A stretch of 64,000 nucleotides of DNA from assembly GCA_013115125.1 (NCBI GenBank), contig JABANN010000038.1, positions 1-64,000 of the forward strand, read 5' to 3'. Below, one piece after another: positions 57,801 to 64,000 of the stretch. The notes beneath the pieces are model-generated. The model was given only the letters and a program-made list of their open reading frames with translations, made no database searches and was not told the DNA's origin. The stretch comes from Perkinsus olseni. Lineage: Eukaryota. Position 1 is the first letter of the stretch; each line of letters starts with the position of its first letter. Both the position numbers and the translations under genes were made by a program.

Positions 57801-60800
57801 AGCATTCAATGCCTCCGTCACTTCCTTGGTCCAGTAGATGCAATCTGTCGCCAACACGACCTGGCCGGGGTAGTCGATGCACCAAGACGTCCGAGGTTTG
57901 CAAGCATAGTCCTTGTTGCTGCGCGACACCACATCCGTGAGAGAATCGATCATAGTCTTCTCGACCTCGACGAGCCACTTTTCGACATTCCCGCGATTCT
58001 CAGGAGAATCCACATCCACAATGTTGGTGAAGTCAACAACCTCACCCTCGGCGCTGATCATAGCGTTGATGATGGTGGCCGTCTCGTTGAACCGTACGGA
58101 AGCTATGCCTTCGAACGCCTTTGCCATGTGGGGCTGCACCAGCGTAGGGTCCTTCGTCTCAGCGAGAATCGACAACAGATCAGCATCGTTCAGGAAGAAG
58201 AACCTGAAAAAAGTTACCACGCTCCTTTTGGAGGTGCTCACCAGCAGGTGAAAACTTCGAGCAGAAGGAAAGGGCATCAACCCGCGAGAGGGTCGTCCAC
58301 TGTTCACGGGCCTAACGCAGAACTCACCTGGGGAAGTAAAGCCGCTTGGTCTCAAGATAGTCCTTCAGTCCCTTCTGGATCTTCTCGAGCTTTTCATTGG
58401 CATCTTTAAAGTCTTCCACAATGCCGCCCGCAGCCGCCACCCCCAGGCATCCAGGACTCCCCTCGACTTGCTTCATCCTCTCCCGGAACGTCACATCAAT
58501 AGTGGCAAAGCCGCTGCTTTCTTCAGGCAATTGTCGCTTGATGTCATCCGACAAAAAGATCGGCTCCAACTGCATCCACGTTCGCTGCACGGCTAGACAC
58601 TCATCGACGAAGTCCTGCAGGTACAGTAAAGTGACCTCCCACTGAAGCACTTCCTGCTCGAAAGGCCTGCAAAACGGCGAGGATCTGATCGCCTGTGTCT
58701 TGACGATATGGTCGTCAAGGACTGCTTGTATCTCATCAATCCCCTTCAATATCGGACATCCGGTTTCCTTGTAGAGAGTTGTCATGAACTCCAGCGGCCC
58801 CCAGTCCTTCTTCATGGCCGCCATTGCTTTCTTCAACGAGTGTTCCTTCTGAGCAGCCGCAGAGATCTCCTCGAAATTCTCAGCAAAATCGAGGACTCCT
58901 TTCTCAAGCATCTGGTGCATGCGGATGTCATCGTAGTCCGCGAACGGCTCGATGCTCATCTTCTCAAAGAGCTCGTCCCAGTGTCTCGGGAGGATAGCCT
59001 CGACGCAAAAGGCCCTCAGGAAGGGGAATTTCACTCGGAAGTCGTCTATTCCGGACTTCAGATCCTTAGCGACTTTCTGGGCCTGAAGAGAAGCAACTTC
59101 GCAGCGCATGCTCGCGTCAGCCGATCACGCACGAGACGGAAGGGCATCAAAGGCCACGCAACCGAGGTTCCACTGGTGGTTTGAATGAAGCAGAAGTTCC
59201 TCACCATCCTGGTATTTTCACTGTCAAACCCCTTGATCATCTTATAGCACTCCTTGAACCAAGAGTCCAGCAATTGCTCAACCTCCTCGGCGTTGATCGA
59301 TTTCATCGGGTCCTGCTGCCATTGGATTTGGCTCTTCTGGAAACTTATCACTGTGTTCCATAACCTAACACACGGGAACATCTAACGGCTGCTTCGCTCC
59401 GCTTCCGAAATCGAACTGAATCGGCCCGCCCAGAGTGCCACCCAGGGGGGCAGTGTAATACACTGCAGTCACAGTGTAATACGCTGTGAAGCATTCAGTG
59501 CAGCTGAGCAACGGTCGAAGAGCGTGAAGGAAGCAGCAGGAGACGCCGCCCCCTCCTCTCACTTGTAATAGCTAGCATAGTCGTCAATCATGCCATCTAG
59601 GTCCCAGTAGTCGGTTGGAGTCAGCCCCAGAAGAGAAGCTCTCGTACGAAAGGACTTCACTTGATCCACCCCTTGGTCGAAAGCCTTCCGAAGATATTCA
59701 ACATTGACTTCGTACTCTGAGGCTCCCTTGGTGTAGTCGTGGCATTCGTGGCGAATGTGATCAAGAATCTGAAGAACGGCGAGTTGCTGCTGCAATTTCT
59801 CACAATAGCGGACTCGAATACATCGTCCAAGGCGCTGGGAACAAATCGCGCACGATTATACCAACTAGGACTATTAACCGGACTAGTGAGAACAGCGAAT
59901 TATGACGGGAACGCCTCCCTCAGTCCGGTCCCGTACGACCTTCTGCCACTTTTTCATGTCGTCCTGGAAAGCTCCTTCCTCCCCTTCCAGCAGAGCGATC
60001 TCTGCAATATTCCTGTTCACTGTGAAGTGCCACAACCTTATCGTGCTATCATCGCTGCATGTCGCCAGACACTGACCCTGCGGAGCCCACGCAGCGAACC
60101 TCGTAGACGCTATGTGACTGAGAGAAGCAACCACGATTTCCACAGGAACTGAAGCACATACACTAGTGGATCTTCGACAATAGCAACCTCGCAGGTTCTC
60201 ACCCAGGCATGGGCTCGGATCTCGGCTTGCCGGAGACAGCACTGAAGAGCTGCACAAGGACGTCCTCATTTGCTGATACTATAGTTGCACCGTTGGGAGA
60301 CCAGGACTGAAAAGGCGGCAATCAAGCGCCTCATAGAGAGCCTCGCCTACGAGTCGTATTCAAAGGAGGCATTATGATCCGTTCTACTGAAAGTATTGCT
60401 GCAGCCAGAGCCGCGGCGATCAGAATGAAATGGCTTAGCCTCAATGCGGGTTACGGAAAATGATCATGATGGCATCATTTGGCGACCCCACGAGGCCTTA
60501 CCACAAAACCGCTGAGGCACTGTATGGGCTCAATGTGAAGAGAGTTATCCACCAAGGTCCAGATCTTAATGGTAGCATCCGTGCTCGCCGTCGCCATCAG
60601 CTTGCTGCCTTCGACAGGACATAAGGCAATGCACGTGATGCTCTTATTGGGGTGACCTGAGGACACTCTCAATTCGCTCAGGTCGAGCCGGCCGAAGGCC
60701 ATCCTCAGCAAAAGTTATAGCTCAAAAATCATCAACAAGAACGTCGGCTGACGCGACGTTCAGTGCTACTCTAACTAACAAGCCTTCACTTCCCTACCTT

Positions 60801-63800: not shown

Positions 63801-64000
63801 AGTACACGATATCATACGTCCCATTGGCGTAACTCTCCTCCACCTTCCCGCTGCACCATCGGCCTTTCCCCTGGTAATTGACCATAACAACGTCCTCAGC
63901 CCCCAGTCGTTTCATCGCGAATCTGAATAAGCGGAGCGAAGCTACTGTAGTAAGAATCACCCATTCTGACACCACCACTGGTGAAGCCCTCACCTGCCAT
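45825..64000 (-). CDS. Axonemal dynein heavy chain, inner-arm type (DNAH1/3/7/12-like), many exons; N-terminal part carries WD40, PA14 x2 and Tudor-like domains; 5' end lies outside the window
   Basis: P-loops GPAGTGKT (AAA1, ~57370), GLPPC|GKT (AAA2), GVTGTGKT (AAA3), GVGGSGRKS (AAA4); [32 protein letters not shown]; stalk/[27 protein letters not shown]-terminal [25 protein letters not shown] (stop 45825). [23 protein letters not shown] is typical of inner-arm heavy chains. Confidence 0.95.
59990..61430 (-). other. WD40 repeat region (about 7 repeats) within the dynein gene model
   Basis: [99 protein letters not shown]. Confidence 0.9.
61480..63475 (-). other. Two tandem PA14-like domains within the dynein gene model
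   Basis: [65 protein letters not shown], and [16 protein letters not shown]..|[44 protein letters not shown]. Confidence 0.8.

Follow-up and report, generated by a model that had tools for sequence, protein, structure and literature searches.

We analysed a stretch of 64,000 nucleotides (nt) of Perkinsus olseni DNA (contig JABANN010000038.1, positions 1 to 64,000 of the forward strand, assembly GCA_013115125.1), which we refer to as the window. An earlier reading of the letters alone (the original prediction) had proposed that a gene at the end of the window encodes an axonemal dynein heavy chain whose tail carries a Tudor-like domain, two PA14 domains and a WD40 propeller. We found that this gene extends from 45825 to 64000 on the minus strand, far past the interval first assigned to it, with 42 exons and 41 introns. 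The coding part within the window comprises 4110 amino acids (aa) and has 0 internal stops in a homology-guided model, for which the guide was P0005, a predicted protein of Perkinsus chesapeaki of 4850 aa. The existence of one gene with the order Tudor, PA14, PA14, WD40 and dynein was borne out by Pfam matches of the separate open reading frame (ORF) pieces, by spliced contigs and by homologues. The features of the gene, in the order of translation, are as follows.

63925-64000, minus strand: 3' end of the intron preceding the first in-window exon, placed by a contig loose end at 63925.
63745-63894, minus strand: Tudor-fold domain, from an AlphaFold2 (AF2) model and structural matches.
63481-63738, minus strand: small beta-barrel with no named family (residues 60-145 of the AF2 model; best VIA matches are small beta-barrels with Z 8-10; fold level only).
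62653-63468, minus strand: PA14 domain 1, from Pfam, split by the intron 62777-63133.
61552-62228, minus strand: PA14 domain 2, from homologues, split by the intron 61736-62004 (a contig joint).
60024-61437, minus strand: seven-blade WD40 propeller, from Pfam, with the introns 60657-60797, 60307-60501 and 60118-60202, all of them contig joints.
59563-60023, minus strand: connector, made of some 30 aa that follow the last blade (as far as 59940), the intron 59769-59939 and the exon that starts the linker.
57921-59594, minus strand: linker, from Pfam DHC_N2.
55631-57497, minus strand: AAA1, from Pfam AAA_6, with Walker A GPAGTGKT from 57383 and Walker B ..DEFNR from 57077.
52032-55630, minus strand: AAA2-AAA4 with lids, from Pfam AAA_5, Dynein_AAA_lid, AAA_7, AAA_lid_1 and AAA_8; AAA3 P-loop from 54532, AAA4 P-loop from 53346.
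50508-51992, minus strand: coiled-coil stalk and microtubule-binding domain, from Pfam MT in three ORF pieces and in P0005.
49352-50426, minus strand: AAA5, from Pfam AAA_9.
45825-48009, minus strand: AAA6, lid and C-terminal domain, from Pfam Dynein_heavy, AAA_lid_11 and Dynein_C.

The guide protein was 78% identical to the query region in the initial search and has the same domain order as the window gene. The finished model was 92% identical to it over 4029 aligned residues. Further, BLASTP joined residues 1-4110 of the window model to residues 795-5027 of P0162, an ORF from Polarella, in one alignment with 58% identity. The first in-window exon begins at 63924, the last intron lies at 45953-46031 and the stop codon at 45825-45827; the model introns measure 44-424 nt (median 118). 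Open frames between stops were scanned singly against Pfam. Among the 10 minus-strand pieces of the upstream part, two had no match and one had a chance-level CLIP match only, and the ten additional ORFs on the same strand, as far as 46236, each matched a dynein motor family, in the correct order. The model contains GC-AG intron donors at 56121, 50183 and 47646, and no contig joint lies over these introns or over those of 44-49 nt. Inside the 606-aa ORF 53837-55657, the P. chesapeaki protein has no counterpart of a stop-free, in-frame stretch of 102 nt (55316-55417), which we modelled as an intron but which could also be a 34-aa insert in AAA2.

Splicing was assessed with contigs from X1, the one public sequencing run in which this stretch was found; the contigs carry no information on transcript ends or abundance. 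The contigs skip nine window intervals, each bounded by GT..AG on the minus strand, and all of these joints (9/9) match introns of the model. Intron-less contigs are most simply explained as derived from cDNA; the formal alternative is an intron-less DNA copy. The key junction, between the last WD40 exon and the first linker exon, was read directly, with the donor AAG/GT at 59940/59939 and the acceptor AG/ATT at 59769/59768. A single contig of 666 nt spans 60117-59940, 59768-59561 and 59362-59204, and thereby lacks exactly the intron (59769-59939) that had been predicted. The contig links ..KKWQK to ILDHIRHE.. in frame and skips the stop at 59883, so the transcript that it represents does not end there, as the original prediction had considered it might.

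Most of the other predicted junctions were seen in the same material. The joints 62229-62652, 61736-62004, 60657-60797 and 60307-60501 each appeared in contigs. The junction 62777-63133 was supported by homology and by zero contig depth in the interval, and is not among the listed contig joints. For the junction 63923-63993 the acceptor stood (the contig has a loose end at 63925) and the donor did not. The 30 nt that continue the contig past 63925 had 0 matches in the window at up to 3 mismatches, and they correspond to upstream residues of P0001, a partial P. olseni protein of 1591 aa. Since the contig runs from 63925 into sequence absent from the window, 63993 is not the donor, and the preceding exon is located past 64000. 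A micro-exon suspected in 60307-60501 is not needed, as the flanking residues are consecutive in P0005, and an 85-nt intron at 60118-60202, a contig joint, had been overlooked.

We observed that the part of the gene downstream of the junction has the composition of a dynein heavy chain: a linker and six AAA modules, with the stalk lying between AAA4 and AAA5, and finally a C-terminal domain, colinear both in the window ORFs and in P0005. Pfam DHC_N2 was detected in three ORF pieces (59061-59381, 58327-59124 and 57204-58364), the last of which also matched AAA_6. The catalytic AAA1 has intact Walker A and Walker B motifs in the model. When the whole motor was compared with solved chains, the best match was DNAH7 (3125 bits), followed by a Chlamydomonas inner-arm chain (2987), DNAH12 (2984), DNAH3 (2937), DNAH1 (2803), DNAH6 (about 2370) and DNAH2 (about 2330), with outer-arm chains at about 1500-1800. 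The AAA2-3 piece alone gave a similar ranking, the Chlamydomonas chain being just above DNAH7. The motor is therefore closest to the single-headed inner-arm DNAH7/DHC7 lineage, from which it would descend, and the predicted inner-arm type of the heavy chain was supported by this ranking. Judged from its sequence, the window gene encodes a dynein heavy chain that is complete and apparently active, with a length of about 4,940 aa.

Upstream of the motor, the predicted series of a Tudor-like domain and two PA14 domains was found, the former at the fold level and the second PA14 domain through homologues. On the Tudor-like stretch Pfam Agenet was sub-threshold (E 0.051, 14.5 bits vs a cut-off of 27). 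An AF2 model of 63133-63915, with a predicted local distance difference test (pLDDT) of 77.7, contains a five-stranded barrel, a small beta-barrel and the first part of PA14. The five-stranded barrel was matched by VIA-align to PHF19 (Z 9.3, root-mean-square deviation (rmsd) 2.0, 54 aa), MTF2 (Z 8.9, rmsd 1.2) and SMN (Z 8.6) over 50-56 aa, and by Foldseek to the tandem Tudor of 53BP1. By sequence, the stretch matches tandem-repeat proteins, one of which, P0019, scores Agenet at E 1.6e-78 (indirect homology). The same domain is shared with a large group of proteins (P0019 and P0024 among them) in which it is repeated in tandem up to 26 times, each unit being about 55 aa long; 15 Agenet stretches were counted in P0019. 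The small beta-barrel between Tudor and PA14 was missing from the earlier list of domains.

PA14 domain 1 was detected by Pfam PF07691 in the ORF 63133-63999 (E 3.1e-9, 37.2 bits vs a cut-off of 24). Its modelled fold resembled the PA14 domains of an RTX adhesin (Z 8.7) and of the K. marxianus beta-glucosidase (Z 8.2), with Z 8.0-8.7 overall. In PA14 domain 2 only the C-terminal half gave a match in the window (E 0.01), and the N-terminal half had no Pfam match. Its counterpart in P0003 is intact (E 4.7e-9 at 1174-1260), and P0033 has 2 PA14 stretches. A PA14 cluster with a score of 0.76 was all that the ESM Atlas yielded, and we treat it as a lead at most.

Pfam WD40 was found in three ORF pieces (60778-61815, 60478-60714 and 59886-60278), and seven blades could be counted by reading the sequence, in agreement with the approximately seven repeats predicted. 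The best solved matches of the propeller were designed WD40 proteins, PWP2, Utp12, DAW1 (rank 10), Apaf-1 and Lis1 (about rank 30, E about 1e-16). The earlier description of the propeller as resembling that of intermediate chains found no support: the best 60 of 447 PDB matches were generic WD40 proteins and no dynein intermediate chain was among them. Similarity to human DNAH7 begins at about 59696 (DNAH7 residue about 722), some 25 residues past the exon junction, as determined with phmmer. Four homologous sequences align over the junction without insertions or deletions, and the sequence across it is kept at 47-58% identity. The last blade and the linker motif are 76 aa apart in 8 of the 9 homologues with both motifs and 75 aa apart in the ninth.

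The gene continues past 64000, as had been predicted. The first in-window exon is 98% identical to P0001 and starts at residue 831 of that protein, so about 830 N-terminal residues lie beyond 64000. We deduced their content from homologues. These start with a conserved Met (MSDD../MDD..), which in the environmental contig L002 is preceded by an in-frame stop. L002 and another metagenome relative, L001, end before the junction between WD40 and the linker and are informative for the N-terminus only. At 1824-1852 of L002 two long ORFs overlap in different frames, which indicates a frameshift or sequencing error within the coding region. Pfam Arm matched the N-terminus of a homologue (23.8 bits vs a cut-off of 20.6). 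EF-hand matches in three proteins were all sub-threshold, as were the matches of a homologue N-terminus to TIR_2 and ThsB_TIR; we propose no calcium binding.

A structure model of the first 330 residues of L002 (L002:71-1060, pLDDT 89.6) contains two alpha/beta domains. The first of them resembled the TIR domains of SARM1 (Z 14.3, rmsd 2.5, 122 aa) and TIR-1 (Z 14.1) in the model. Its top 12 structural rows were all TIR or ThsB-type TIR entries, counting Cat1 at rank 12, which we take to be an entry of the TIR type. For the second modelled domain the matches included TIRAP and TRIF at Z 9.0-9.6. Foldseek placed two-lobed sugar isomerase (SIS) folds at the top for the whole N-terminal model, and we dropped this candidate on account of its template modelling (TM) score of 0.22-0.25 and rmsd of about 16, compared with the TIR matches of the single domains. 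According to these models and to the Pfam matches, the N-terminus would carry a pair of TIR-fold domains, then a helical region resembling EF-hands, another N-terminal region and ARM repeats. The original prediction had foreseen neither these additional residues nor the wide conservation of the design in dinoflagellates.

We compared the N-terminal regions with the tails of canonical dyneins. None of five fused N-terminal regions (1685-1711 aa) matched canonical DHC7-type tails in phmmer, whereas in the control all eight tails of canonical alveolate relatives matched oomycete DHC7-type tails, and most of them also animal or chytrid ones. Further, P0004, a 1106-aa N-terminal module, had matches (E up to 1) to 14 solved chains; PA14 accounted for every one of them and none was a dynein, in a database (PDB) that contains many axonemal heavy chains. 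The conserved Met start, together with the tail matches in 0/5 fused regions vs 8/8 controls, indicates that the whole tail was replaced and that nothing was inserted into it. Of the two origins proposed at first, a fusion or a large insertion in the tail, the former stands, as replacement of the entire tail at the N-terminus, and the latter does not. As far as sequences can tell, the canonical tail is replaced by about 1,660 aa that comprise two predicted TIR-fold domains, an EF-hand-like region, a further region, ARM repeats, Tudor, a small beta-barrel, two PA14 domains and WD40. The earlier remark that Tudor, PA14 and WD40 tails are not normal for the inner-arm class was supported as well. 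The self-contained motor with cargo or sensor modules that had also been proposed is an inference.

Homologues were searched with the linker-AAA2 region of P0005 as a query. Four full-length representatives of 5027-5044 aa have PA14, WD40 and the motor, one of them being an ORF from a Polarella glacialis transcriptome. Cluster members automatically named DNAH7 came from Symbiodinium natans (5170 aa), S. microadriaticum, S. pilosum and others, and a 3472-aa fragment from Gymnodinium smaydae. The search among dinoflagellates that had been suggested thus revealed the same design in Polarella and Symbiodinium. The junction motif was present in 10 of the 45 proteins checked, and P0002 and P0033 also span the junction. 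The listed closest relatives from Vitrella, Chromera, Neospora and Amoebophrya were without the fused module. In the P0163 cluster (90%), models of 6702-7134 aa from Symbiodinium microadriaticum and Symbiodinium sp. CCMP2592 stand beside forms of 5029-5030 aa; the longer ones may be over-merged gene models or real extensions.

We also built a tree of 59 rows and 987 columns (IQ-TREE quick search, LG+G4), with the Shimodaira-Hasegawa-like approximate likelihood ratio test (SH-aLRT) as the only branch support. The fused proteins formed one clade of 15 rows with SH-aLRT 100, into which every row with the junction motif fell; 11 of its rows have the motif, 3 are N-truncated and one is the divergent P0189. 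Two Perkinsus rows, with short end branches, were sister to the other 13. The sister of the fused clade consisted of canonical Amoebophrya-type dyneins, and the clade was nested among the alveolate DNAH7/3/12 relatives. P0189 (6406 aa) sits on a long branch (0.66), and its N-terminus can be aligned with the module (30%). The P-loop of its AAA1 lies at residue 3317, which makes the region before the motor about 1,000 aa longer. Because a single clade with SH-aLRT 100 holds both perkinsid and dinoflagellate members, the fusion probably predates the split between perkinsids and dinoflagellates.

Elsewhere in the window we observed, by Pfam, a BT1-family transporter at 1482-3251 on the minus strand (E 4.7e-62), a partial mRNA cap guanine-N7 methyltransferase at 41232-42212 on the plus strand and a DnaJ-domain protein at 43105-44508 on the plus strand. 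An ORF of 830 aa at 23072-25561 on the minus strand had no Pfam match.

Further, we compared the protein with known dyneins. The best solved matches, the DNAH7/DHC7 (IAD-3) inner-arm dyneins, share with it the linker, six AAA modules, stalk and C-terminal domain. Their tail of roughly 720 aa, however, has no counterpart in the Perkinsus protein, which has about 1,660 aa of other modules instead. A closer parallel in terms of the tail is the outer-arm alpha heavy chain (DHC4-alpha), in which a kelch propeller and two Ig folds are described as taking the place of the tail (King 2025, PMC12338079; Kollmar 2016, PMC5100056). A second propeller next to the motor is reported for the alpha chains of chlorophytes, cryptophytes and haptophytes, those of alveolates being described as lacking it (PMC12338079). 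According to the same source, the replaced tail attaches to the beta chain, and the second propeller lies against its own ring, for which a Lis1-like contact was suggested (PMC12338079). Both systems have an axonemal-type motor, an N-terminal assembly region exchanged for propeller and beta-sandwich domains, and a propeller directly before the motor. They differ in the lineage of the motor, in the taxa and in the modules, with kelch and IPT/filamin on one side and WD40 and PA14 on the other, and the Perkinsus protein has Tudor, ARM and TIR-fold domains in addition. The Pfam scans of the window pieces and homologues reported no family of the kelch, IPT or filamin kind.

WD40 repeats fused to a heavy chain are also described in class-10 dyneins, which carry seven of them at the C-terminus and have an altered AAA5 (Kollmar 2016, PMC5100056). 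Both proteins thus link a heavy chain covalently to seven WD40 repeats; those of class 10 are not detectably related to intermediate chains, and no intermediate chain was among the best 60 matches of the Perkinsus propeller. The Perkinsus propeller is N-terminal, however, its AAA_9 is ordinary, and the ORF ends right after an ordinary Dynein_C. With Lis1 we see a functional analogy only: in both, a WD40 propeller is placed where it could touch a dynein ring, but Lis1 is a separate protein, and the Perkinsus propeller is no more similar to it than to dozens of unrelated WD40 proteins. Among 3,272 heavy chains surveyed, every new class is stated to have a tail that aligns to canonical tails, and so is every orphan except one from a diplomonad (Kollmar 2016, PMC5100056). 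The words 'Perkinsus' and 'PA14' are absent from the main text of that survey, whose supplementary orphan lists and trees may include a Symbiodinium or Perkinsus member. Literature text searches found no published description of a dynein with a Tudor/PA14/WD40 tail. The architecture thus appears to be undescribed; the sequences are public under the labels 'hypothetical' or 'DNAH7', which hide it.

A dynein tail decides the docking site and the assembly partners of the motor. In the explanation that we favour, an inner-arm-type motor whose tail has been replaced is docked via an adaptor chain. ATP turnover at AAA1 would swing the linker while the stalk grips the microtubule, as in any dynein. 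Because the propeller sits directly on the N-terminus of the linker with a short, fixed connection, the power stroke would move the whole adaptor chain as a unit. This chain, rather than a helical-bundle tail with actin, p28 and centrin, would anchor the motor to its partner, which would most likely be a structure of the flagellar axoneme or its lineage-specific accessories, and the motor would act as an extra, differently docked inner-arm-type head. We estimate the probability of this explanation as a whole at roughly 55%. Its component that places the docking on or beside the axoneme, drawn by analogy, we regard as an even call.

Several points count against this explanation. The type of run X1 is unrecorded and was guessed to be RNA, and the life stage is not recorded. 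The three GC donors, like the eleven introns that measure 44-49 nt, were placed by the P0005 guide only and are less certain. The class assignment is a ranking of scores, and the tree was calculated without DNAH1, DNAH6 and outer-arm sequences; as its outgroup was of the DNAH7/3/12 type only, it does not test the assignment. Since the canonical tail is missing, a canonical inner-arm site is not open to the protein by the usual route, and since flagellated alveolate relatives are without the module, it does not belong to the basic axoneme. To our knowledge, TIR, Tudor, PA14 and ARM domains are not known as axonemal docking domains.

The same protein could instead be a motor specific to Dinozoa that works on cytoplasmic, cortical or flagellar-root microtubules with a built-in adaptor for cargo or signalling. 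We consider this possible, although clearly less probable than the docked inner-arm-type head. It would agree with the complete loss of the canonical docking tail, with an adaptor made of general protein-, mark- or glycan-binding and signalling-type folds, with the absence of the family from the chromerid and apicomplexan proteins listed as close relatives, and with spliced mRNA contigs that come from a run without a recorded stage. On the other hand, the motor falls within the inner-arm-type dyneins and shows no unusual divergence, every named holder belongs to a flagellated lineage, and single-headed inner-arm motors are generally not built for long-range transport.

More doubtful is a specific proposal in which the protein is no canonical arm of the 96-nm repeat, but a dynein restricted to perkinsids and dinoflagellates with an inner-arm-type motor hard-wired to its own adaptor. 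Here, TIR domains of the signalling type (possibly NAD-cleaving), a Tudor domain resembling readers of marks and two PA14 domains of the glycan-binding type would pick the partner, a Lis1-like propeller mounted on the linker would gate its own AAA ring, and the protein would act on lineage-specific flagellar accessories or on cortical or root microtubules.

It is unlikely that the protein is a structural or regulatory, non-motile dynein of the DNAHX/DNHD1 kind with the ring serving as a scaffold. Loss of the normal tail does suggest a changed role, and heavy chains described as non-motile exist, e.g. DNAHX (preprint PMC11785096). In this gene, however, AAA1 retains intact Walker A and B motifs, AAA3 and AAA4 have P-loops, the stalk with the microtubule-binding domain and the C-terminal domain score normally, and the Perkinsus end branches are short. 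Finally, that an adjacent adaptor gene and a tail-less dynein were merged by gene prediction, read-through or assembly is extremely improbable: the direct evidence in P. olseni is one short contig from a run of unrecorded type, P0001 and P0005 are predictions, and perkinsids use spliced-leader trans-splicing, which makes an independent 5' end at the 59768 acceptor conceivable, but the contig unites both parts by an in-frame cis-splice with no loose end reported at 59768, transcriptome ORFs of 5027-5030 aa cover both parts in Polarella and Symbiodinium, the sequence and spacing of the junction are conserved (47-58% identity), and the dynein part by itself would lack both a tail and a start codon nearby. 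That this is a real, conserved motor with a replaced tail we consider nearly certain.

The only well-known wholesale exchange of a dynein tail is that of the outer-arm alpha chain. The Perkinsus protein would be a second, independent case, in an inner-arm lineage and with different modules, and the exchange would have been kept since before the divergence of perkinsids and dinoflagellates. A motor protein that carries TIR-fold domains would be unusual for this feature alone. The protein would also be a natural version of the tail-swap constructs made of dynein in the laboratory, and it could reveal what effect a propeller mounted on the linker has on the ring. In perkinsids and dinoflagellates, which include shellfish parasites and coral symbionts, it may mark an undescribed structure in their unusual flagellar apparatus.

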